Source of the DNA: Rickettsiales bacterium
GTDB lineage: Bacteria; Pseudomonadota; Alphaproteobacteria; Rickettsiales; SXRF01
Direction of reading: 5' to 3'
NCBI GenBank assembly: GCA_947459535.1
Contig: CANHDY010000001.1
Coordinates: forward strand, 4,653-68,652
Length of the DNA: 64,000 nucleotides
Position numbers and translations under genes: made by a program. The notes under the pieces are model-generated. The model worked only from the letters and a program-made list of their open reading frames with translations. It made no database searches and was not told where the DNA came from. Of this stretch, positions 17,660 to 46,671 are shown one piece after another. Each line of letters opens with the position of its first letter. The first letter of the stretch is position 1.

Positions 17660-17689
17660 CTGGATTACTTCGCTTACGCTCGTAATGAC
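17660..17689. repeat. half element CTGGAT...AATGAC
   Basis: ctggattacttcgcttacgctcgtaatgac. Confidence 0.6.
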
Positions 17690-18924
17690 GATAGTATTTC
17701 CTTCACCAGCCTCTCAGCCACTTGGGTTTTACTCTTCTTCGGCCATGGGTGCTGGCCATCTTTGGAAATGAATATCACCCGATTGTCATCATCACCAAAC
17801 ACTTTACCGCCGGAAACATCGTTGGCAAGCACCCAATCAGCGCCCTTGGCGTGATATTTCTTAGCCGCATGGCTTGCAAGCTTCTCGGTTTCTGCCGCAA
17901 AACCAACCACCAGGCGCGGGCGCTTCGTTTTGTGCTGCGCCACGCTTTTTAAAATATCCGGGTTTTCCTCAAGCTCCAGCGCCGGTTTTTTCCCCGTCTG
18001 TTTTTTGATTTTCTGCGCGGCTGGTTTCACATGCCAGTCCCCCACTGCGGCGGCAAACACCGCCACATCCACCGGAAGCAGCCTGTGCACCGCCTCATGC
18101 ATCTCGCGCGCTGTGGTCACATGCACGACCGAAACACCCGCAGGATCAGCAAGCTGCGTCGGCCCCGAAACCAGCGTCACCTTCACACCCACCTTGGCAA
18201 GCGCCGCCGCAATCGCATGCCCCTGCTTGCCGCTGGAGCGATTGGCAATATAGCGCACCGGATCAATCGGTTCATGCGTCGGGCCAGAGGTGACGAGAGC
18301 GGTGATACTCTTTGACCCCCTCTCCCTTTCAGGGAGAGGGTTGGGGTGAGGGTTATGTCTTTTACCCCCCTCACCCTGCCCTCTCCCCGCAGGGGAGAGG
18401 GTTCTAAGCACCACTTCCACAATCTCCTGCGGCTCGGCCATACGCCCGGGGCCTTCTTCGCCGCAGGCCAGCATGCCGACACCCGGCTCGATCACTTCCG
18501 CGCCGTCAGCCTTGAGCTGCGCCACGTTGCGCTGCGTGGCGGGGTGGCGCCACATCTGCGTGTTCATCGCTGGTGCTACGAGCAGTTTTTTATTGTTAGC
18601 AAGCAGCGTGGCGGTTGCCATATCATCGGCAATCCCATGCACCATCTTGGCGATAATATCGGCAGTTGCAGGTGCCACGAGCAGCAAATCCGTTTCGCGT
18701 GAGAAACGAATATGCCACATGTCCTTCTTTTCCTTGGGCGAGAATAAATCCGTGGAAACGGGATTGCCCGAAAGCTTTTCCAGTTCTTTCACATTCACAA
18801 ATTCGCTGCCGCCGCGCGTGACAATGCAGTGCACACCAATCTTCTTTTGACGCAGCAGGCTAATAAGCGCCGGCGCCTTAATCGCCGCAATCGAACCGCT
18901 GATGATGAGGGTAATGGAGGGCAT
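17674..18924 (-). CDS. coaBC: bifunctional phosphopantothenoylcysteine decarboxylase/synthetase
   Basis: 'ISGSIAAIK', 'PAMN..M', 'VTSGPTHEPIDPVRYIANRSSGKQG'. Start set at 'MPSITLII'; upstream codons are a translated repeat. Confidence 0.9.
   Translation of the reverse strand: MPSITLIISGSIAAIKAPALISLLRQKKIGVHCIVTRGGSEFVNVKELEKLSGNPVSTDLFSPKEKKDMWHIRFSRETDLLLVAPATADIIAKMVHGIADDMATATLLANNKKLLVAPAMNTQMWRHPATQRNVAQLKADGAEVIEPGVGMLACGEEGPGRMAEPQEIVEVVLRTLSPAGRGQGEGGKRHNPHPNPLPERERGSKSITALVTSGPTHEPIDPVRYIANRSSGKQGHAIAAALAKVGVKVTLVSGPTQLADPAGVSVVHVTTAREMHEAVHRLLPVDVAVFAAAVGDWHVKPAAQKIKKQTGKKPALELEENPDILKSVAQHKTKRPRLVVGFAAETEKLASHAAKKYHAKGADWVLANDVSGGKVFGDDDNRVIFISKDGQHPWPKKSKTQVAERLVKEILSSLRA
18316..18403. 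repeat. G/C-rich tripartite palindromic element, family A (CCCTCTCCC..GGGAGAGGG / GGGGTGAGGG..CCCTCACCC / CCCTCTCCCC..GGGGAGAGGG)
   Basis: Three consecutive hairpins read directly. Lies inside coaBC. Confidence 0.85.
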
Positions 18925-18942
18925 AGCTACCACATTTAAAGT

Positions 18943-18970
18943 GTCATCCCGAGCTTGTCGAGGGATCTCA
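18943..18970. repeat. GTCATCCCGAGC-type half element
   Basis: gtcatcccgagcttgtcgagggatctca. Gives the spurious 'EIPRQARDDT' N-terminal extension of the coaBC ORF. Confidence 0.6.
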
Positions 18971-19009
18971 AGATCTTTCGACTTCCCCCGCAATAAATGC
19001 CGGGTTCGC

Positions 19010-35016: not shown

Positions 35017-35133
35017 TTATGACAGTTCCATGACAGTTCGGTTACGGAACCGTGAAGATTGCATCCACGGGCGTTTTAGCATTTGTGCTCTGTTTGGTTT
35101 TCGATAAGATGAGTACATAGAGGAACACAAATT

Positions 35134-35319
35134 ATGAGTCTCGATATGCCACACCTTCCCCTTGATCAGCTGACCTTCTCCAATGTGGATAGTGCATTGG
35201 TAGCCGGTGGCACCAACCTTGCTATCAGCCAAGCTTCAGTCGGTGGCGGCATGGATGCAACAACCACTTTTGCACAAAATATTGGCATGGCTCGCCGGGA
35301 TGATGGTTTAGGCATCTAA
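35134..35319 (+). CDS. small hypothetical protein (61 aa), monocistronic
   Basis: GAGGA lies 9-10 nt upstream of the start. Followed by a strong intrinsic terminator at 35341-35370. Confidence 0.5.
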   Translation: MSLDMPHLPLDQLTFSNVDSALVAGGTNLAISQASVGGGMDATTTFAQNIGMARRDDGLGI

Positions 35320-35340
35320 CCTATTCAGCTACATGTAACA

Positions 35341-35370
35341 AAAAAGCGGCCTTCGAGCCGCTTTTTTTGT
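35341..35370 (+). terminator. rho-independent terminator
   Basis: aaaaAGCGGCcttcgaGCCGCTttttttt: GC stem followed by a T-run. Confidence 0.75.
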
Positions 35371-35381
35371 GTTTACGTGCC

Positions 35382-35470
35382 GTCATGCCCGTGAAAACGG
35401 GCATCCAGCGCGCCGCGTCTGCGGCGAAATGGTATTAAGTAGACTGGATTCCCGCTTTCGCGGGAATGAC
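35382..35470. repeat. composite element: GTCATGCCCGTGAAAACGGGCATCCAG - spacer hairpin - CTGGATTCCCGCTTTCGCGGGAATGAC
   Basis: Read directly. The spacer holds the hairpin cgccgc-gtct-gcggcg. Confidence 0.8.
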
Positions 35471-35577
35471 GAAATAAATAACCCTCTCAGAGCACCCAGA
35501 AAACGCTTTTCATTTACATTCCATGCTTTTTCAGTATAGTATCAATCTATTGCGCACAAAACGGGCGATAGACTAGC

Positions 35578-35934
35578 ATGTCCACAAAATGGAGCTCCCA
35601 GATACTCGGTCGCGGCTCGGTCAATTTCGATGACCTGCTGAAGGACGAGTATTCCATTATTCTGCTGCAGGGCAAGAACACCTTCGGCGACATGATCTAT
35701 TGCTACGTGAAAGTGACCCTACCTAATATGCAGAAACTTCAGGCTGCGCTGAAAATGGGGGGCAATTTCAGTCCCAGTGATTTCGGCGAGGTGATCGCTG
35801 CAGCCAAAGGCCAGCCCAGCGCCGAGGTGAAAGCGGAGATCGGCCGGCTTTACCCGATGCTCGACACCCCGCAAGTCATGCATGAGGCCGTTGCCGCAGC
35901 AGCCTCTGAAAAAAAAGCGTGGGATGAATTCTAA
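35578..35934 (+). CDS. hypothetical protein (118 aa)
   Basis: Intact ORF with coding-like composition. No clear SD and no family recognised. Confidence 0.45.
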   Translation: MSTKWSSQILGRGSVNFDDLLKDEYSIILLQGKNTFGDMIYCYVKVTLPNMQKLQAALKMGGNFSPSDFGEVIAAAKGQPSAEVKAEIGRLYPMLDTPQVMHEAVAAAASEKKAWDEF

Positions 35935-35935
35935 T

Positions 35936-36022
35936 CGGATGACGGATGACGGTTGTCGGATGACGAAGCATCTGCTTTAGTGTTTTTTGTCATCTGTCAT
36001 CCGTCATCTGTCATCCGCCACC
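35936..36022. repeat. CGGATGA heptamer arm, loop, GTCATCY heptamer arm
   Basis: cggatga cggatga cggttgt cggatga ... gtcatct gtcatcc gtcatct gtcatcc gccacc, then the lgt ATG. Confidence 0.9.
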
Positions 36023-36850
36023 ATGCTCACCTTCCCCAATATCGACCCCATCGCGCTTGAGCTAGGACCGCTTGCCATTCGCTGGTATTCGCTGGCTTAT
36101 ATTGCAGGGATATTGCTGGGCTGGTGGATTATCGTGCGCGAGCTGGCCGCCCGCCCGCTGGAAAACTTAAATAAAAAAGCCATCGATGACATGATCGTCT
36201 GGGCGATTATCGGCATCATGCTAGGCGGCAGGCTGGGCTACTGCCTGTTTTATAAACCATCTTACTACCTCGAAAATCCGCTGGAAATCCTTCAGCTCTG
36301 GCAGGGCGGCATGTCGTTCCATGGCGGCTTTGCCGGCTTTGTGCTCGCTTTTTATCTTTTCTGCCGCAAATACAACGTACGCTTCCTCGCGCTGATGGAT
36401 CTGATGGCCTGCGTCGCGCCGATTGGCATCGGGCTTGGCCGCCTCGCCAACTTCATCAATGGTGAACTTTATGGCCGCGTTACCGATTCACCGCTCGGCA
36501 TGATCTTCCCACACAGTGACGGCCAGCCGCGCCACCCCAGCCAGCTTTATGAGGCTTTTTCCGAAGGGCTGATTTTATTCATGATCATGATGTGCTTGCT
36601 GAAATTGTCCACACTCCGCGACCGCGCGGGAGCCTTGTCCGGCCTGTTTTGTATCGGTTACGGAACTGCCCGCATTATTTGTGAGTTTTTCCGCGAGCCG
36701 GATGCTTATCTGGGTTTCCTCTTTGCCGGTGCCACCATGGGGCAGCTGCTGAGTCTGCCGATGATTTTCATCGGTATATATCTGATATGGAAATCATCCC
36801 CCTCACCCGCCGCTTCGCGTCCTCCCTCTCCCCGTCGGGGAGAGGGTTAG
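36023..36850 (+). CDS. lgt: prolipoprotein diacylglyceryl transferase
   Basis: 'IRWYSLAYI' and 'GGMSFHGG'. The last ~17 codons and the stop codon lie inside a palindromic element. Confidence 0.9.
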   Translation: MLTFPNIDPIALELGPLAIRWYSLAYIAGILLGWWIIVRELAARPLENLNKKAIDDMIVWAIIGIMLGGRLGYCLFYKPSYYLENPLEILQLWQGGMSFHGGFAGFVLAFYLFCRKYNVRFLALMDLMACVAPIGIGLGRLANFINGELYGRVTDSPLGMIFPHSDGQPRHPSQLYEAFSEGLILFMIMMCLLKLSTLRDRAGALSGLFCIGYGTARIICEFFREPDAYLGFLFAGATMGQLLSLPMIFIGIYLIWKSSPSPAASRPPSPRRGEG

Positions 36851-36860
36851 GGTGAGGGGG
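36798..36860. repeat. family A element (nested hairpins)
   Basis: cccccctcaccc...ccctctccccgtcggggagagggttagggtgaggggg, spanning the lgt 3' end. Confidence 0.85.
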
Positions 36861-36865
36861 TAAAT

Positions 36866-37942
36866 ATGAACGATTTACTTTCCATCATCAAGGAACGCAT
36901 CGCTGAAAACGGGCCGATTCCGGTTTCGGAATATATGAGCCTGTGCCTTGCCCATCCTGAGCATGGCTATTACATGAAACGCGACCCGCTGGGCAAGGAT
37001 GGCGATTTTATTACGTCACCGGAAATCTCTCAGGTTTTTGGGGAATTGCTGGGTCTTTGGATCGCAAACCAGTGGGAAAAGCAAGGAAAGCCAAACGCCA
37101 CCCTGCTTGAAATGGGCCCCGGGCGCGGCACACTGATGAATGACGCCCTGCGCGCCACTAAAAAAATTAAGGGATTGCATGATGCGGTCTCGGTTCGTCT
37201 GCTGGAAATCAGCCCGGCGCTGAAGCAAAAACAATGGCAGCTGCTGGCGGGCAAGCACCATGATCTCGGCTGGCTGGAATCACTCGATTCACTGCCGCTA
37301 GAGCCCCTTTTTGTGGTGGCCAATGAGTTTTTTGACGCCCTGCCAATCAGGCAGTTTGTATGGCAAAATGAGAAGTGGCATGAGCGTTATGTTGGAATGG
37401 ACGGCGATCAACTTAAGTTCGTCATCGCGAGTGAGCGAAGCGAGCGTGGCGATCCAGACTGGATTGCTTCACCTTCGGCTCGCAATGACGGTGAGATTAA
37501 AGAAATTTGTGAACCAGCAACTGAAATCATTTCAAAGATCTCAAGCCATATTAAAACCTATGGCGGCGCGGCGCTCATCATTGATTACGGCTACAATGAA
37601 GGCAACGGCGACACGCTCCAGGCCATGCGTCGCCACCAGTATTTTGAAATATTTTCAAAGCCCGGTAGCGCCGACATCACCGCCCATGTCGATTTCGCCG
37701 CCCTCAAAGAAGCGGCAGAAAAAGCAGGCGCCAAAGTATTTGGCGCGACGCCGCAAGGGCGTTTCCTGATGAAGATCGGCGCCGGCCAGCGCACCCAGAA
37801 ACTCTGCGGAAGCGCCTCGCAGGAACAAAGCAGAGAGCTGATCTCGGGTCTCGATCGCCTCGCTTCCCCGGAAAAAATGGGCGAACTATTCAAAGTGCTG
37901 GCGATATTGCCGCCAGATGCCATGCATGCGGAGGGTTTTTAA
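36866..37942 (+). CDS. MidA/NDUFAF7-family SAM-dependent methyltransferase (DUF185)
   Basis: 'DFITSPEISQVFGEL', 'EMGPGRGTLM'. Carries a 69-bp palindromic element in frame. Confidence 0.8.
   Translation: MNDLLSIIKERIAENGPIPVSEYMSLCLAHPEHGYYMKRDPLGKDGDFITSPEISQVFGELLGLWIANQWEKQGKPNATLLEMGPGRGTLMNDALRATKKIKGLHDAVSVRLLEISPALKQKQWQLLAGKHHDLGWLESLDSLPLEPLFVVANEFFDALPIRQFVWQNEKWHERYVGMDGDQLKFVIASERSERGDPDWIASPSARNDGEIKEICEPATEIISKISSHIKTYGGAALIIDYGYNEGNGDTLQAMRRHQYFEIFSKPGSADITAHVDFAALKEAAEKAGAKVFGATPQGRFLMKIGAGQRTQKLCGSASQEQSRELISGLDRLASPEKMGELFKVLAILPPDAMHAEGF
37421..37489. repeat. compact composite element GTCATCGCGAG...ATCCAGaCTGGAT...CTCGCAATGAC
   Basis: 69 bp. Lies inside the midA-like CDS. 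Confidence 0.85.
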
Positions 37943-38781
37943 TGCTCTTTCCCCTCACCTCTTCCAATCTCGACTTACCACACATCCGCCACGGCTTTTT
38001 CAGCCGCAGTGGCGGCGTGAGTCAGGGTATCTACGCATCGCTGAACTGCGGCCCCGGCTCCGGCGATAATCTGGAACATGTGGGCAAAAACCGCCAGCGC
38101 GTAAGCAGCCACATGGGTGCACCGCTCATCACCTGCCATCAGGTTCACAGCAGCGAGGTGGTGACGGTTGAGATGCCATGGCAGCAAGGGCAGGCACCGC
38201 AGGCCGATGCGATGGTAACGAATCAGCCCGGCATCGCGCTGGGTATCCTGACGGCGGATTGCCTGCCGGTACTTTTTGCTGATCGCAGCCAGCGCATCAT
38301 CGGCGCGGCGCATGCCGGCTGGAAGGGTGCCTTCACCGGCGTACTGGAAAACACCATTGCCGCCATGAAAGCCCTTGGCGCCAGCGACATTGCCTGCGCC
38401 ATTGGCCCCGCCATTTCGCAGCCCTCTTATGAAGTCGGCCCGGAATTTTATGAGCGTTTCACGAAAATATACTCCCCCAGCTTGCGGGGGGAGATAGAGG
38501 GGGGTGATCATGCAACACTGCAAACTCACCCCCCCTACCCCCCCGCAAGCGGGGGGGTAATAAACAATGACCAATTCTTCATCCCCTCTTCCCGCGAAGG
38601 CCATCACCTCTTCGACCTCAAGGGCTATGCGCTGGCGCGGCTCAAAAATGCGGGCGTTGAGGCGGAACTTCTTGACCGCGATACCTGTTTTGAAGATGAT
38701 AGCTTCTTCAGCTTCCGCCGCGCCACCTTAATCGGCGAACGTGGCTATGGCAGGCAGGTTTCGGTAATATCATTAGTATAG
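37942..38781 (+). CDS. pgeF: peptidoglycan editing factor PgeF (YfiH/laccase-domain family)
   Basis: 'QVHSSEVV', 'ADAMVT', 'TADCLPV', 'HAGWKG'. Carries an ~87-bp element in frame. Confidence 0.85.
   Translation: MLFPLTSSNLDLPHIRHGFFSRSGGVSQGIYASLNCGPGSGDNLEHVGKNRQRVSSHMGAPLITCHQVHSSEVVTVEMPWQQGQAPQADAMVTNQPGIALGILTADCLPVLFADRSQRIIGAAHAGWKGAFTGVLENTIAAMKALGASDIACAIGPAISQPSYEVGPEFYERFTKIYSPSLRGEIEGGDHATLQTHPPYPPASGGVINNDQFFIPSSREGHHLFDLKGYALARLKNAGVEAELLDRDTCFEDDSFFSFRRATLIGERGYGRQVSVISLV
38472..38558. repeat. tripartite palindromic element, family B
   Basis: ctcccccagcttgcggggggag / ggggggtga..tcacccccc / acccccccgcaagcgggggggt. Lies inside pgeF. Confidence 0.85.
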
Positions 38782-38783
38782 CT

Positions 38784-38897
38784 GTCATCCCCGCGAAAGC
38801 GGAGATCCAGTTATAAACTTGACGAAAAATGTCTACTGACATTTTTCTTCTCTGGATCCCGGATAAATTTTTCTACTGAAAAATTTTCCGGGATGAC
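38784..38897. repeat. composite element with GTCTACTGAC hairpin
   Basis: gtcatccccgcgaaagcggagatccag + gaaaaatgtctactgacatttttc + ctggatcccggataaattttt..aaaattttccgggatgac. Confidence 0.85.
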
Positions 38898-38913
38898 AAC
38901 AAAGGATAATTCT

Positions 38914-42144: not shown

Positions 42145-43024
42145 GGTTTGCCTTTAGTTCCTTCGCATACCTAGCCTCAACTGCGTATTTTAGCAACAAA
42201 GTGAGCACGGCCAGTAAGGTCAGCAGCGACGCGACCGCAAACGCCGCTACGAAATTATATTCATTATACAGAATCTCCACATGCAGCGGCACAGTGTTCG
42301 TCTGCCCCTTGATATGGCCGGAAACGACTGACACTGCGCCAAACTCGCCCATCGCCCGTGCATTGCACAGCAGTACGCCGGAGAGCAGCGCCCATTTGAT
42401 ATTGGGCAGCGTCACGCTGATGAAGGTACGAAAGCCCGATGCGCCAAGCAGAATCGCCGCTTCCTCTTCTTCGCTGCCCTGCTCTTCCATCAGCGGAATC
42501 AGCTCACGCGCCACAAACGGAAAGGTGACAAAGATGGTGGCAATCACCAGGCCGGGCACCGCAAAAATAATCTGGATATCGTGTGCAGCGAGCCACTCGC
42601 CCAGCGCCGAATGCGCGCCAAACAGCAGCACATAAATCAGGCCGGAAATCACCGGCGAGACGGAAAACGGCAAATCAATGAAGGTGATGAGCAGGCGCTT
42701 GCCGGCAAATTCATATTTGGCAATCGCCCAGGAGGCGCAGAGGCCAAACACCACATTAAACGGCACCGCAATCGCCGCCACCAGCAACGTGAGCTCGATG
42801 GCCGACAGCGCATGGCGGTGGGCAAGCGCATCTGCGTAAGCCTCCCAGCCCTTTGCAAACGCTTCTGCAAAAACCACCGCCAGCGGCAACGCCACCAGCG
42901 CCAGCATGAAGCCAAGCGCGACAGCAATGAGCACCAACTTCACCCACCATGGCTCTCCTAAAATCTCCCTCTCCCTTTTAGGGAGAGGGTTGGGGTGAGG
43001 GTTATCAGTCCAAATGACGCTCAT
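42134..43024 (-). CDS. cysW: sulfate ABC transporter permease CysW
   Basis: Permease EAA-type region '[15 protein letters not shown]'. The first ~20 codons lie in a repeat element, so the start is uncertain. Confidence 0.85.
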
Positions 43025-43062
43025 AAAACCCCCCTCCTAACCTCTCCCCTTAAGGGGGGAGG
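42967..43062. repeat. family A-like tripartite element at the cysT/cysW junction
   Basis: ccctctcccttttagggagagggttggggtgaggg ... cctctccccttaaggggggagg. Confidence 0.85.
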
Positions 43063-43876
43063 AATATCTGGATTGTAACCAGTTAATGAGTAGCAGCAAC
43101 GCGAATGATGCAAGCAGCATCACGCAGGCGATGGCGGTGGCGCCTGCCACATCATATTGCTCCAGCTTCACAACAATCAGAAGCGGCACAATTTCCGACA
43201 CGCCGGGAATATTGCCCGCGATAAAAATCACCGAGCCATATTCGCCGAGCGCGCGGGCAAAGGCCATGGCAAAGCCGGTCGCGAGCGCCGGTAGCACCGA
43301 AGGCAATAACACGCGCGTAAAAAGCTGCCAGCGCGAAGCGCCAAGGCTCACCGCCGCCTCTTCCACCTCGCGGTCAATGTCTTTTAAGACCGGCTCCACC
43401 GTGCGCACGACAAACGGCAGCCCGACAAATACCAGCGCTGCAAAAATCCCCAGCGGCGTGAACGCCACCTTGATGCCAAGCTCATTAAGCGGAGCGCCGA
43501 GCCAGCCGCTGGGGCCATAAAGCGTCGCCAGCGCGATGCCAGCCACCGCCGTCGGCAGGGCAAAGGGTAAATCCACCATCGCATCTAACATTTTGCGACC
43601 GGCAAAACGGTAGCGCACCAGCACCCACGCGAGAATCAGCCCGAAACATGCGTTCACCGCCGCCGCCGCCAGCGCAAGGCCAAAGCTTATTTTATAAGCA
43701 TGCACCACGCGATCAGAGGTCACGGCTTTCATGATCTCCGGCCAGCTGAGCGTGGCTGTTTTCACAAACAGTCCGGCCAGCGGAATCACCACCACCAGCA
43801 GCAGCGCCGCCAGCGTAAACGCCATGGTGATGCCAAAGCCCGGCAGAATGGAAGGTTGTTTGAGTTTCATATACAT
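43037..43876 (-). CDS. cysT: sulfate ABC transporter permease CysT
   Basis: 'EEAAVSLGASRWQLF'. The last 8 codons and the stop codon lie in a repeat element. Confidence 0.85.
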   Translation of the reverse strand: MYMKLKQPSILPGFGITMAFTLAALLLVVVIPLAGLFVKTATLSWPEIMKAVTSDRVVHAYKISFGLALAAAAVNACFGLILAWVLVRYRFAGRKMLDAMVDLPFALPTAVAGIALATLYGPSGWLGAPLNELGIKVAFTPLGIFAALVFVGLPFVVRTVEPVLKDIDREVEEAAVSLGASRWQLFTRVLLPSVLPALATGFAMAFARALGEYGSVIFIAGNIPGVSEIVPLLIVVKLEQYDVAGATAIACVMLLASFALLLLINWLQSRYSSPLKGRG

Positions 43877-43878
43877 AC

Positions 43879-43956
43879 GTCATGGCGAGCGTAGCGAAGC
43901 CATCCAGTTTGGCAAGTCTGGATTGCCGCGTCGGCCTTTGGCCTCCTCGCAATGAC
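43879..43956. repeat. compact composite element GTCATGGCGAG...ATCCAG..CTGGAT...CTCGCAATGAC
   Basis: Read directly. Lies between the cysT start and the recJ stop. Confidence 0.85.
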
Positions 43957-43960
43957 GGAA

Positions 43961-45769
43961 CTATGACGCAAGCGATACATCTTCGATCATCAGCTGCGCG
44001 GTGATGTTGCCGTTATAGTGGTTTTCCTTAAGGTGGCCAATCAGCGAAATCTCCTTGCCGCGTGAAGAAAGTAGGCTGTCGCCCAGCTTGGTACCCACCG
44101 CGCGAAAGGCAATGGCGTTCAGGCGGGCGTTACTCAGGCGGTCGATCAGCAGCGTGCGGATATGCTGCTCGCCCACAATCTCCGGCTTCAAATTCACGGC
44201 ATGATCCACCATCAGCCGCACCGAAGGGTTGCCCTGCCCGAACGGCTCCAGCTGTTTCAGAGTATCGATCAGCTGGGTGGTCGCGCCGCCCACCGCCACA
44301 CGCGCATCAATTCGGTAGTGACGCTTTCGCGATATGTCGCCCACTTGGCGGCGAATATGATCACCAAGGAATTGTTCCAGCTGCGGAATATATTCTTCTT
44401 TGACCGTAAAGCCAGCCGCCATGGCATGACCACCGCCCGCAACCAAAAGGCCGCTGCCCAGCGCCGCAATCACCGCCGCGCCCAGATCCACCCCGCTCAC
44501 ACTGCGCGCCGAGGCCTTGCCCACACCATCTTTCAGAGCGATCACCGCGCACGGCACATTAAAACGTTCCTTCACCCTGCCCGCGACAATGCCGATTACC
44601 CCCGGGTGCCAGCCCTCGCCGGAAAGCAGCAGCACCGGCGCATTCTGCGGCGCGCACTCAGCAAGCGCCATGGCTTCTTCCAGCACACCCGCCTCAATGG
44701 CGCGGCGCTCTTCGTTGTAGCGCTCCAGCTCAGCGGCAAGCATCGTTGCCTCTTCTTCATTCTCGCTGGTGAGAATACGCACACCAAGATCCGACTTGCC
44801 CACGCGCCCGCCAGCATTGATGCGCGGCCCCAGAATAAAACCGCAATGATAGGCCGCAAGCTGACCATCGGCGCGCGCGGTCTGCAGCAGCGTGCGAATG
44901 CCGATATTCTGCTTAGCTGCCATCACTTTCAGCCCTTGCGCGACCAGTGCGCGGTTAGCGCCGATAAGCGGCACCACATCCGCCACCGTGCCCAGCGCGA
45001 CAATATCGAGGAGTTGTTTCAGGTCAGGTAAAGGTCGTGGTTCGTGGTTCGTGGTTCGTGGTTCGTGATTTCGCAGCACTCGATTCACCGCCACACACAG
45101 GAGGAATGCCACGCCCACCGCTGCAAGGTACGTATGCGGTGAGGTTTCATCGAGCCGGTTGGGGTTCACCAGCGCAAGGCATTTAGGTTTTTTCGCCTCA
45201 CCCTGATGATGATCCACCACCACCACATCCAGCCCCGCGTCATGCGCTGCCTCCAGCGGAGCAAAGGAAAGTGTGCCGCAATCCACCGTAATGACAAGGC
45301 TGGCGCCCTGCTCTTTCAGCAAAAGCAGGCCAGCGCTATTAGGGCCATAACCCTCCTTCATACGATCCGGAATATAAACCAATGGCTCGCTGCCCAGCGC
45401 ACGCAAATAGCGCACCAGCAGCGCAGAAGACGTCGCGCCATCCACATCATAATCGCCCCAGATGGCGATGGTTTCCCCCGCCAGCACCGCCGCCGCCACA
45501 CGCTCTGCCGCCACCTCCATATCCAGCAAATGTGCTGGATCCGGCAAAGATGATTTAAGGCTGGGATTAAGGAAATCATGAACCTGCTCAGTGGTAACAC
45601 CGCGCGCTACCAGAATTCGTGAGAGTATCTCTGGTAGATCATGCGCGTGCATCACCTGCTGCACCAGATGCTCAGGGGCTTGGCTAAATTGCCATGAAGC
45701 GCCGGTCGCGGAAACGAGGTGAGAGGATGATTGGATGATTGGATGATGAAGTGAGTTTGTGCTATGCAT
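43961..45769 (-). CDS. recJ: single-stranded-DNA-specific exonuclease RecJ
   Basis: DHH motifs 'IWGDYDVDGATS', 'VVVDHH', 'GGGHAMAAG'. Contains an in-frame heptamer tract. Confidence 0.92.
   Translation of the reverse strand: MHSTNSLHHPIIQSSSHLVSATGASWQFSQAPEHLVQQVMHAHDLPEILSRILVARGVTTEQVHDFLNPSLKSSLPDPAHLLDMEVAAERVAAAVLAGETIAIWGDYDVDGATSSALLVRYLRALGSEPLVYIPDRMKEGYGPNSAGLLLLKEQGASLVITVDCGTLSFAPLEAAHDAGLDVVVVDHHQGEAKKPKCLALVNPNRLDETSPHTYLAAVGVAFLLCVAVNRVLRNHEPRTTNHEPRPLPDLKQLLDIVALGTVADVVPLIGANRALVAQGLKVMAAKQNIGIRTLLQTARADGQLAAYHCGFILGPRINAGGRVGKSDLGVRILTSENEEEATMLAAELERYNEERRAIEAGVLEEAMALAECAPQNAPVLLLSGEGWHPGVIGIVAGRVKERFNVPCAVIALKDGVGKASARSVSGVDLGAAVIAALGSGLLVAGGGHAMAAGFTVKEEYIPQLEQFLGDHIRRQVGDISRKRHYRIDARVAVGGATTQLIDTLKQLEPFGQGNPSVRLMVDHAVNLKPEIVGEQHIRTLLIDRLSNARLNAIAFRAVGTKLGDSLLSSRGKEISLIGHLKENHYNGNITAQLMIEDVSLAS
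45036..45070. repeat. direct heptamer tract (CGTGGTT)x4 + CGTGATT inside recJ
   Basis: Read directly. Translated on the minus strand as RNHEPRTTNHEPRP. Confidence 0.95.
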
Positions 45770-46502: not shown

Positions 46503-46504
46503 CT

Positions 46505-46667
46505 GTCATCCCGGAAAATTTTGCAGGAGCAAAATTTATCCGGGATCCAGTGAAGCAAAAAGTCAAAAGACTTTTTGTGTTTTACTATTTGACGACCAAA
46601 GTCTACTGACTTTGATCTTTTCTGGATCCCGTGCTCGCTACGCTACTGCTTCGCTCCACGGGATGAC
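46505..46667. repeat. composite element with two internal GTC..GAC hairpins
   Basis: gtcatcccggaaaatttt..aaaatttatccgggatccag + hairpins at 46555-46577 and 46597-46614 + ctggatcccgtgctcgc..gctccacgggatgac. Confidence 0.85.
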
Positions 46668-46671
46668 GGCT

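Follow-up and report, generated by a model that had tools for sequence, protein, structure and literature searches.

The window, by which we mean the whole 64,000-nucleotide stretch of DNA analyzed here, contains a gene for a methyltransferase of the MidA/NDUFAF7 family (midA). Its product matched the Pfam family Methyltransf_28 (PF02636; E = 2.9e-68), and its best match in the PDB was 1zkd (E = 7e-89). A first-pass annotation, made from the sequence, had described a palindrome of 69 bp at positions 37421-37489 that is read through as 23 codons of this gene without a stop. The palindrome and its coordinates were borne out, with inverted-repeat and folding results in agreement, and so was its in-frame position within the open reading frame (ORF) that matches PF02636. 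The features discussed below are collected in Table 1.

Table 1. Coordinates in the window of midA, the element inside it, and other repeats
Feature	Coordinates	Strand	Description
Host gene midA	36866..37942	+	MidA/NDUFAF7-family SAM-dependent methyltransferase (PF02636), 358 aa; Pfam and PDB matches
Whole element in midA	37420..37490	.	Inverted dimer of two CGTC-tagged REP arms; tags outward, CCAG tails facing a 1-nt spacer
Left arm of midA element	37420..37457	+	cgtc ATCGC gagtgagcgaagcgagcgtg GCGAT ccag
Right arm of midA element	37459..37490	-	Minus-strand reading cgtc ATTGC gagccgaaggtgaa GCAAT ccag
Second full copy, same arm type	43878..43957	.	cgtc ATGGC..GCCAT ccag / cgtc ATTGC..GCAAT ccag
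Half copy, single arm	17660..17690	-	Minus-strand reading GTCATTACGAGCGTAAGCGAAGTAATCCAG
Canonical CGTC-1 dimer	35381..35471	.	cgtc ATGCCCGT gaaa ACGGGCAT ccag / cgtc ATTCCCGC gaaa GCGGGAAT ccag
CGTC REP dimer between yfiH and ilvE	38783..38898	.	ATCCCCGC gaaa / ATCCCGGAAAA, 17-nt loop
CGTC REP dimer	46504..46668	.	In L001 and L003, other small GC hairpins occupy the orthologous spacer

The left arm of the midA element has a 5-bp basal stem around a 20-nt interior that contains GCGAAGC, and the right arm, ATTGCTTCACCTTCGGCTCGCAATGAC on the plus strand, exactly matches one from a Chloroflexi MAG (L093). The ends of the element form an inverted repeat of 12 nt that is 92% complementary (CGTCATCGCGAG at 37420-37431 and CTCGCAATGACG at 37479-37490), and an inner stem is formed by GCGATCCAG and CTGGATTGC (37449-37457 and 37459-37467). 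As RNA, the 69-mer was predicted to fold into a single long hairpin of −31.2 kcal/mol (z = −3.07), which 1 of 200 shuffled sequences equaled; as DNA, the predicted fold had −18.2 kcal/mol (z = −2.77). Taken singly, the arms folded no better than shuffled sequences (z = +0.55 and −0.32). Three of the six frames of the element are free of stops.

This organization is that of the CGTC-tagged REP superfamily (Di Nocera, De Gregorio and Rocco 2013, BMC Genomics 14:522; PMC3733652). According to that paper, its units have an unpaired 5' CGTC (or TGTC or CCTC), a stem that starts with AT, and a CCA tail, and they occur mostly as inverted dimers with a variable spacer. Copies are mostly intergenic, and the in-frame copies catalogued there code for 20 to 30 residues; the superfamily is found mainly in Alphaproteobacteria and in five phyla in all. 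Its families CGTC-1 to -4 have a stem of 8 to 9 bp and a loop of 4 to 5 nt, and it includes Neisseria dRS3 (CGTC-1) and the Rickettsia elements RPE-6 (equal to CGTC-1) and RPE-4 (equal to CGTC-4). In both the midA copy and the copy at 43879, cgtc starts both arms, ccag ends all four arms, and the first two pairs of the stem are A-T (ATCGC...GCGAT, ATTGC...GCAAT, and ATGGC...GCCAT). The arms are inverted, and their layout agrees with that of the Rickettsia conorii and E. litoralis dimers listed in PMC3733652. We conclude that positions 37420-37490 very probably hold a non-autonomous palindromic repeat of this superfamily, an inverted, REPIN-like dimer that lies in a stop-free frame in midA. We assign it to the superfamily rather than to one of the described families because its arms, with their 5-bp basal stem and interior of 12 to 22 nt, lack the longer stem and short loop of those families, and because single arms are unstable. 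As far as the text descriptions of the four published CGTC families allow, the ATTGC...GCAAT arm type differs from all of them.

Two further copies named in the first-pass annotation, an intergenic one at 43879-43956 and a half copy at 17660-17689, also proved to be real. The former matches the midA copy in architecture, with a spacer of 10 nt between the arms compared to 1 nt in midA, and fills the 84 nt that separate the ORFs at 43037-43876 and 43961-45769, both on the minus strand. The half copy overlaps the 3' end of the ORF at 17674-18993(-) and, as read off the sequence, provides its final codons (SLRA) and its stop. A hidden Markov model (HMM) of 220 family-member arms, all from other genomes, was run on the window and recovered four of the five arms that had been named (37421-37456, 37460-37489, 43919-43956, and 17661-17689), with no further arm below E = 0.3 in the whole window. 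The model missed one arm, on the left of the second copy (43879-43903, GTCATGGCGAG), for which the evidence comes from the exact-pattern and palindrome results. The motif ATCCAG-N(0-30)-CTGGAT occurs four times in the window compared to 0.12 expected, while the 11-mer end alone is marginally enriched (5 matches compared to 1.8 expected), all five matches falling within the three loci. The window also holds a canonical CGTC-1 dimer at 35381..35471, and this genome thus carries the classical families of the superfamily.

We looked across genomes for the family with the pattern GTCATNGCGAG-N30-60-CTCGCNATGAC, which was matched in at least 120 genome stretches. Among the matches listed, the carriers were Alphaproteobacteria, Chloroflexota, Bacteroidota, Planctomycetota, Verrucomicrobiota, Cyanobacteria, Omnitrophota, Berkelbacteria, Legionellales, and Tisiphia. 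The internal arm sequence GCGAAGCAATCCAG was conserved too, though the search pattern did not impose it. The family consensus for the arm ends reads ...GCAATCCAG, and the arm consensus is GTCATTGCGAG, then CGAAGC or GAGCGAAGCGAC, then GAAGCAATCCAG; the spacers between the arms measure about 0 to 25 nt among 125 copies. The window element had no blastn match among plasmids, and the family consensus matched plasmids of Novosphingobium and Methylosinus, including a Novosphingobium megaplasmid with at least 40 such places. Single arms were also seen in prophages of Helicobacter canis, one of them a lone arm inside a gene annotated as a transposase. A full-text literature search with the REP-coded peptides and with 12-mers from the element returned nothing relevant.

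The flanks of 124 copies from other genomes bear on how the element might move. Position −1 is C in 65% and T in 25% (C/T in 90%), giving a CGTC or TGTC tag, and position +1 is G or A in 96%. No target-site duplication was found at these flanks, which are instead inverted-complementary (Y..R) and extend the palindrome. With inverted ends of 11 to 12 bp, a short length, and many copies both genic and intergenic, the element might be taken for a classical MITE, that is, an internally deleted insertion sequence (IS) with terminal inverted repeats and target-site duplications. The flank census largely refutes this reading, since direct repeats are absent; the whole element is palindromic rather than its ends alone, and no parent IS was found near 120 loci. 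We therefore consider a MITE origin highly improbable.

REPINs, which reportedly go back to work by Nunvar et al. in 2010 and Bertels and Rainey in 2011 on REPs and RAYTs, are inverted REP doublets that form one hairpin, are non-autonomous, and leave no target duplication; they have a GTAG-type tag, a cognate RAYT gene flanked by REPs, and lineage-specific sequences. The copies described here are built alike, with two inverted REP units that are separated by a variable spacer and fold into one long hairpin; they also share a conserved unpaired 5' tetranucleotide and the absence of a target duplication, and so might be mobilized by a RAYT (an IS200/IS605-like tyrosine transposase), as are the GTAG REPs of Pseudomonas and Escherichia coli. 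However, the tag is CGTC and not GTAG, and whereas REPIN/RAYT pairs are lineage-specific, the present arm type is conserved from phylum to phylum. When the 1870 ORFs of 120 loci, each of 8 kb, were compared all against all by BLASTP, neither a RAYT-like gene nor any other specific neighbor recurred beside the copies; the neighbors that did recur were of generic kinds (ABC ATPases and LysR regulators, for example). Di Nocera et al. (PMC3733652) likewise report that CGTC REPs have no dedicated transposase and that no RAYT was found flanked by CGTC units. Mobilization by a RAYT is on these grounds unlikely.

The first-pass annotation had proposed that a GTCAT/ATGAC family colonizes coding sequence with the frame intact. 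This interpretation is supported: the element is a dispersed repeat, and, besides the midA copy, a copy lies in frame in an unrelated MAG (L107), inside the GATase domain of a real GuaA gene. Among 125 mostly intergenic copies, lengths modulo 3 were distributed 48/43/34, with no sign of a bias toward multiples of three, so that preservation of the frame looks like a selective filter and not a property of the element. Twenty-nine of the 125 copies fell within long open frames, mostly in GC-rich genomes in which such frames are unreliable, and of three open-frame copies checked against Pfam, only that in GuaA was confirmed to be truly in frame. A read-through of a glycosyltransferase in L137 was rejected as an in-frame copy; it looks like two genes joined across a spacer.

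In MidA, the element codes for residues 186-208 (VIASERSERGDPDWIASPSARND). An AF2 model of the protein, with a mean pLDDT of 85 but of 58 at residues 191-200, places them between predicted strands at 182-187 and 211-214 and has a short helix at 198-201. In orthologue alignments, which the first-pass annotation had suggested as a check, the 23 codons sit between the nearly invariant F185 and the invariant E213, where the family varies most. They do not align to conserved MidA residues, an outcome that would have counted against the first-pass interpretation. At this position the loop measures just 9 to 16 residues in about 45 of the 120 closest homologues. The insertion is not a clean gain of 23 codons: the short-loop relatives carry about four residues (e.g., F-IPED-GEITE) that are absent from the window. 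The variability of the loop and the confidence of the model suggest that the 23 REP-coded residues would be harmless to MidA, the peptide being a neutral passenger and not a functional module.

At the position of the element, distant MidA proteins (1zkd, those of Rhizobiales, and eukaryotic NDUFAF7) carry a native segment that is similar in length but unrelated. This similarity in length, the short predicted helix, and the stable hairpin could be taken to mean that the segment is native or adaptive in MidA or that it acts as a regulatory hairpin in the mRNA. Such a role is very hard to reconcile with a family that is also intergenic, in the window and in many phyla, and with close relatives that have unrelated palindromes or no insert at all. 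Model confidence is low for the segment, and no Rfam family matched anywhere in the entire window at the gathering threshold. We give this reading very little credence.

The native segment of the distant proteins faintly resembles the REP-coded peptide (F-x-I-A-x-E ... R-D/N). We considered whether this segment (FGIANE...VRDAP) might be an ancient decayed REP and left the resemblance as what we take to be a coincidence.

The same slot in midA holds different sequences in different relatives. In L003, a syntenic relative whose MidA is 80% identical in amino acids, it contains a canonical CGTC-1 dimer, CGTC ATTCCCGC GAAA GCGGGAAT CCAG...CTGG ATCCCCGC TTTC GCGGGGAT GACG. This dimer has the same nucleotide boundaries as the element in the window (TTC / GG), and 36 bases upstream are identical; the boundaries are also identical in L085. 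L001 (GCA_033763775.1), the nearest public relative of the source organism, has a different palindromic sequence. The slot peptides VIPAKAGI, RFRGND, and IPASAGMT in P0003, P0004, P0007, P0009, P0013, and P0020 match CGTC-1 peptides in Additional file 3 of PMC3733652. P0014 and P0016 have a 69-bp element of the arm type and at the codon boundary seen in the window. In L010 and P0020 the GTCAT end is read in another frame (CHPCESRDP), and the insert in L006 likewise terminates in another frame (IPASAGM). Versions that look decayed were found in P0015 (ATASVAKQDSLP..PPREG), P0054 (..WLDRIAQSAPHND), and P0098 (VVPEESGVS..IPDPGNL), and a single-REP remnant, WIPASAGTTKE, was found in P0083 and P0085. 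A scan of metagenomes found few close relatives. The similarity of the window and L085 elements (85.5%) was considered as proof of common descent and rejected, as copies in unrelated phyla reach up to 84%.

Intergenic slots give a similar picture. Apart from the midA slot, five orthologous spacers are filled in both the window and L003, and at least four of the five differ in stems, loops, or repeat family. The site of the yfiH-ilvE dimer is filled in L001 and L003 as well as in the window. The copy at 43879 is missing at the orthologous place in L001, where the flanks differ too, and L003 has other CGTC REPs there instead. No clean empty site was recovered for this copy or the midA copy. The 5' segment of lgt-midA is 86% identical between the window and L001, compared to 90 to 95% elsewhere, which hints at recombination.

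These patterns are open to more than one history. It is quite possible that dimers preferentially enter the midA loop and the intergenic slots and that the window, P0014/P0016, P0003, L010/P0020, and others each gained theirs independently. P0014 and P0016 have the window-type element yet are nearer to the short-loop forms (67 to 72% amino acid identity) than to the window (62%), some inserts are read in other frames, and the window element is about as similar to copies in unrelated phyla as to that of L085. Matsutani et al. [quoted passage not shown] Against a hotspot, the flank preference, YC/GR, is far too weak to pick out one position in a 1-kb gene, the grouping comes from a neighbor-joining tree without bootstrap, and the exact boundaries and identical flanks of the window and L003 also fit a replacement inside a slot that was inherited.

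An ancestor of the clade may, alternatively, have gained one REP dimer, which would then have decayed, lost one half, or been overwritten by gene conversion, allelic recombination, or REP exchange. This history is quite possible too. It accords with the decayed versions and single-REP remnants in the slot, with the boundaries shared by the window, L003, and L085, with the spacers that are filled in both the window and L003 with differing content, and with the hint of recombination in lgt-midA; for Rickettsia, Matsutani et al. (PMC3767692) favor a common origin. On the other hand, the roughly 45 short-loop homologues would require many independent precise or nearly precise losses, no donor for conversion was identified, and the differing frames argue for at least some separate events.

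A more speculative and rather unlikely idea is that CGTC REP dimers fill fixed slots whose contents are actively exchanged by an enzyme, possibly one of strand-specific HUH type that cuts at the outward CGTC tags. One dimer would be excised and another would take its place between the two nucleotides that had flanked it, whether in a gene or in a spacer. Such exchange would explain the unrelated arm types at identical boundaries and flanks in the window and its 80%-identical orthologue, the differing content of at least four of the five other spacers between the window and L003, and the near invariance of one arm type across more than 10 phyla.

The midA copy, a non-autonomous repeat, probably arrived or was exchanged by way of trans-acting machinery for the spread of CGTC REPs or by recombination with a different allele. 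It would persist because 23 extra residues in the loop spare the enzyme, and the frame would be kept because selection removes disruptive insertions.

The in-frame insertion of REPs and RPEs into surface loops has been on record since 2000-2013, and the midA copy alone is of little weight; MidA joins the list of genes with an in-frame REP or RPE. [quoted passage not shown] One loop of midA appears across it as a short loop, with a single REP, with dimers of at least two REP types, with another palindromic family, and with decayed copies, and very close relatives (90 to 95% DNA identity) already differ there. The ATTGC-type arm is also strikingly conserved across distant phyla. We know of no enzyme that moves CGTC REPs, and so uniform a family offers a good handle for finding one.

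[quoted passage not shown] Like them, the element here is a palindrome in frame in an intact housekeeping gene, at a place tolerated by the fold (a variable loop of low pLDDT); unlike them, its host is an uncultured alphaproteobacterium and not Rickettsia. [quoted passage not shown] The same authors found that, at one and the same locus, the RPE group may differ among Rickettsia orthologues or the insert may be atypical.

QMITE2, the IS1111-target REP of Coxiella burnetii (Wachter et al. 2018; PMC5896051), is, by description, also a small palindromic REP with a conserved stem and a variable tip, and relatives have been reported in Bradyrhizobium and Rhodopseudomonas. Unlike the element here, it is described as a GTAG REP, and its full form has terminal inverted repeats and direct repeats of 7 to 11 nt. 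Neisseria dRS3, again by description, consists of short clustered ATTCCC-N8-GGGAAT units without the arm type seen here.

The closest system is the CGTC superfamily itself, CGTC-1 units of which occur both in the window and at the midA slot of an orthologue. Our copies differ from it in that their peptides (VIASE.., ..ARND, SLRA.., and ..LAMT) are absent from the published list of intragenic REPs and in that their range of phyla is wider than the five given there. The GTCAT/ATGAC family named in the first-pass annotation is not a novel one: its repeats belong to a superfamily already known (PMC3733652), with in-frame copies on record. The midA copy is an ordinary example of it, and in-frame colonization of this kind is already documented.

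The sequence that the first-pass annotation had quoted for 37421-37489, as a GTCAT/ATGAC palindrome translated in frame, matched the window exactly. Extended by one base on either side, this midA element is a palindrome with 12-nt outer arms (CGTCATCGCGAG and CTCGCAATGACG, 92% complementary) and an inner stem, GCGATCCAG/CTGGATTGC, flanking a single base. As RNA, the 69-mer folded into one long hairpin of −31.2 kcal/mol (z = −3.07), equaled by 1 of 200 dinucleotide shuffles; as DNA it also formed one long hairpin (−18.2 kcal/mol, z = −2.77). Rfam gave no support for a structured-RNA role. The host ORF encodes a Methyltransf_28 protein (PF02636, E = 2.9e-68) whose closest solved structure is 1zkd, followed by 5ztz, a Dictyostelium NDUFAF7 homologue. 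The 23 codons of the element read VIASERSERGDPDWIASPSARND, and three of its six frames are stop-free.

The two further copies listed, at 43879-43956 (from sequence and palindrome results) and 17660-17689, are real. A profile of 220 arms from family members in other genomes recovered four of the five arms listed, with no further match in the window below E = 0.3; the remaining one, the second copy's left arm (43879-43903), scored under the profile threshold and is backed by exact-pattern and palindrome results. The half copy overlaps the end of an ORF, and the text of Di Nocera et al. (PMC3733652) notes that REPs frequently do so.

Features of the midA element, its relatives and the MidA loop (window positions unless a contig is named)
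Feature	Location	Strand	Content
Host gene midA	36866-37942	+	358 aa; midA element in frame
midA element, left arm			cgtc ATCGC [20 nt] GCGAT ccag
midA element, right arm			minus strand: cgtc ATTGC [14 nt] GCAAT ccag
Second copy, two arms	43879-43956		cgtc ATGGC [12] GCCAT ccag + cgtc ATTGC [22] GCAAT ccag
Half copy at ORF end	17674-17690	-	Last four codons (SLRA) and TAA stop of 439-aa ORF 17674-18993
Canonical CGTC unit	35448-35470		cgtc ATTCCCGC gaaa GCGGGAAT ccag
Partner of that unit	35382-35404		cgtc ATGCCCGT gaaa ACGGGCAT ccag
GuaA insert, L107	CAYNRM010000012.1, 4466-4543		78-bp ATTGC-type dimer; peptide VIARPRSGAAISKNSEIASEGAPRND
Short MidA loop	~45 of 120 homologues		9-16 residues, e.g. 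FIPEDGEITE
Window's arm type in loop	Six homologues		P0001, P0006, P0008, P0012, P0014, P0016
CGTC-1 dimers in loop	Seven homologues		P0003, P0004, P0007, P0009, P0013, P0020, P0114
Apparent single CGTC-1 unit in loop	Four homologues		P0064, P0065, P0083, P0085
Decayed-looking versions in loop	Several homologues
Unrelated loop segment	One clade		42-46 residues

The arms share one layout: cgtc, a stem beginning with AT, an interior, the complementary stem and ccag. GCGAAGC, a heptamer that forms an unusually stable DNA mini-hairpin, was frequent in the interior. Neither single arm of the midA element folded better than shuffled sequence. Tagged hairpins numbered 17 in the window versus 2 to 4 in shuffles. 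The grammar of the midA element and the second copy matches the one by which Di Nocera, De Gregorio and Rocco (2013, PMC3733652) define the superfamily of CGTC-tagged REPs: an unpaired CGTC (often TGTC) tag, stems opened almost invariably by A-T pairs, a CCA tail and units that in most cases form inverted dimers. According to the same text, hosts are chiefly alphaproteobacterial, with five phyla in total, intragenic copies are on record and there is no dedicated transposase; CGTC-1 is equated with RPE-6 of Rickettsia and dRS3 of Neisseria, CGTC-4 with RPE-4. As described there, the four families have stems of 8-9 bp and loops of 4-5 nt, whereas the arms of the midA element have a 5-bp stem and a long interior. 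Because of this architecture, and because its arms do not fold alone, we place the element, with some uncertainty, within the superfamily but in no described family, the comparison being with the published text.

We scanned species-representative genomes for GTCATNGCGAG-N30-60-CTCGCNATGAC, and at least 120 stretches matched. Among the matches listed, hosts included Bradyrhizobium, sphingomonads and Methylocystaceae, as well as Chloroflexota, Bacteroidota, Pirellulales, Opitutaceae, Microcoleus, Omnitrophota, Berkelbacteria, Deltaproteobacteria, Legionellales and a Tisiphia endosymbiont. The commonest arms among them were GTCATTGCGAGCGCAGCGAAGCAATCCAG and GTCATTGCGAGCGAAGCGAAGCAATCCAG, positions outside the imposed pattern were conserved too, and the spacer between arms varied. 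The right arm of the midA element is identical to an arm in a Chloroflexi MAG (L093), and the megaplasmid of Novosphingobium resinovorum carries the family in at least 40 places. The flanks of the 124 copies listed prolong the palindrome (Y at −2/−1, R at +1/+2); these copies lack direct repeats indicative of target duplication, and no gene recurred beside the copies listed. Stop codons were somewhat rarer in copies than in shuffles (3.1 versus 2.3 of six frames open), with no excess of lengths divisible by three among the matches listed (length classes 48/43/34), where they appeared mostly intergenic. One in-frame copy outside midA was confirmed, in the glutamine amidotransferase (GATase) domain of GuaA, the GMP synthase, in a gammaproteobacterial MAG (L107); both the GATase domain, spanning the insert, and the C-terminal domain are still detected by Pfam.

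Two further observations concern distribution. Among the matches listed (L086-L205), a 29-nt arm, GTCATTGCGAGCG(A/C)AGCGAAGCAATCCAG, hardly varies between Bradyrhizobium and hosts in Bacteroidales, Chloroflexota and the candidate phyla radiation. Prophages of Helicobacter canis and Helicobacter sp. (BK070053-57, BK070154) carry up to four lone family arms each (31-36 nt, 89-94% identity), one of them within a gene whose annotation reads transposase family protein.

An alignment of the 120 closest MidA homologues placed the element (residues 186-208) in the most variable stretch of the protein, between the nearly invariant F185 and the invariant E213. CGTC-1 dimers in this loop were recognised by the published peptides VIPAKAGI, RFRGND, CESRDP and IPASAGMT. 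In distant MidA proteins (1zkd, Rhizobiales, eukaryotic NDUFAF7) a native segment roughly as long as the insert occupies this place, so the length of the window protein is not exceptional. Relative to short-loop relatives there is no clean +23-codon event. The claim of an in-frame palindromic family member within the MidA coding sequence holds with that qualification, and with the further one that the family was already published. In an AlphaFold model (mean pLDDT 85, pTM 0.87), residues 186-208 lie between strands 182-187 and 211-214, with residues 191-200 at pLDDT 58.

The Rhizobiales-type segment, F-G-I-A-N-E ... V-R-D-A-P, spans 29 residues from F to E, the length of the REP-coded segment, and bears a faint end-to-end likeness to REP-coded F-V-I-A-S-E ... 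A-R-N-D (window residues 185-213); this is probably coincidence. A second MidA loop (columns 187-200 of alignment A1; window residues ~166-170) takes repeats too: LPSPLGGEGQGE/IPSPQRGEGQGEG in P0002/P0007, and in P0014 CHPREGGD, a peptide resembling the translation of one lone CGTC-1 unit.

We then compared relatives at the same slot. L003, a syntenic stretch (lgt-midA-yfiH-ilvE) with an 80%-identical MidA, carries a 66-bp canonical CGTC-1 dimer bounded by TTC and GG as in the window, preceded by 36 identical bases. The nearest public relative, L001 (GCA_033763775.1), 90-95% identical across most of 21 kb, has another palindromic sequence, CCCTCCCCC-TCAAT-GGGGGAGGG, of nearly equal coding length. 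In L085 (P0014; 62% protein and 65% gene identity) the same codon boundary holds an element, again 69 bp long, of the arm type seen in the window; it is 85.5% identical to the window's, a likeness no higher than that of copies from unrelated phyla (up to 84% among the matches listed). P0014 and P0016 group with short-loop forms, and in two further orthologues (L010 and L006) the element ends are translated in frames different from the window's. Besides midA, five orthologous spacers (30.7, 35.4, 38.8, 43.9 and 46.5 kb) are filled in both the window and L003, and stems or loops differ in at least four of the five.

At L003 17620-17866, orthologous to 43879-43956, a CGTC-1 unit (CGTC ATTCCCGC GA ... 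AA GCGGGAAT CCAG) has a loop apparently split by a ~70-nt insert and adjoins a ATCCCGGAAAA-type unit. The next gene, yfiH/Cu-oxidase_4 (37942-38781), has an in-frame ~81-nt insert of a different palindromic family at 38478-38562 (CCCCCAGCTTGCGGGGGG ... CCCCCCCGCAAGCGGGGGGG; peptide SLRGEIEGGDHATLQTHPPYPPASGG) that the 93%-identical L001 gene lacks. A third family, CCTCTCCCC-GTC-GGGGAGAGG then GTTAGGGTGAGGG (peptide ..PSPRRGEG), forms the Lgt C terminus at 36800-36862 (3' end of lgt, 35987-36850), a place at which L001 carries a CGTC dimer whose loop is 5 nt; the family also fills a spacer at 42955-43070 that in L003 holds an ATTGC-type REP dimer. The lgt-midA 5' segment (35018-37357 versus L001 8188-10489) is 86% identical against 90-95% in the rest of the 21 kb, which points to import by recombination, in the course of which the midA loop may have been exchanged as well.

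The midA element thus belongs to a repeat family, forms a hairpin, lies in a protein loop and occupies a slot that other family members use. Such REPs might spread through an enzyme acting in trans, or recombination among copies or alleles might carry them; intragenic copies would survive only where the frame is kept and the loop is permissive, and the REP-coded MidA peptide would be without function. A possible reading that the data allow, and the sole one that would raise the interest of the finding if true, is that fixed slots actively exchange their REP cassettes.

The element is a CGTC-tagged REP/RPE-like in-frame insertion, an already known kind, with an arm type that does not fit the four CGTC families as their published text describes them. 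ATGAC is the characteristic motif of Rickettsia RPE-4, -6 and -7 (Matsutani et al. 2013, PMC3767692). Rickettsia orthologues carry differing RPE groups at one locus, for which that study left hotspot versus common origin undecided; the midA slot and the other spacers match this pattern, and for the midA slot we likewise give about equal weight to an insertion hotspot and to a common origin of the inserts.
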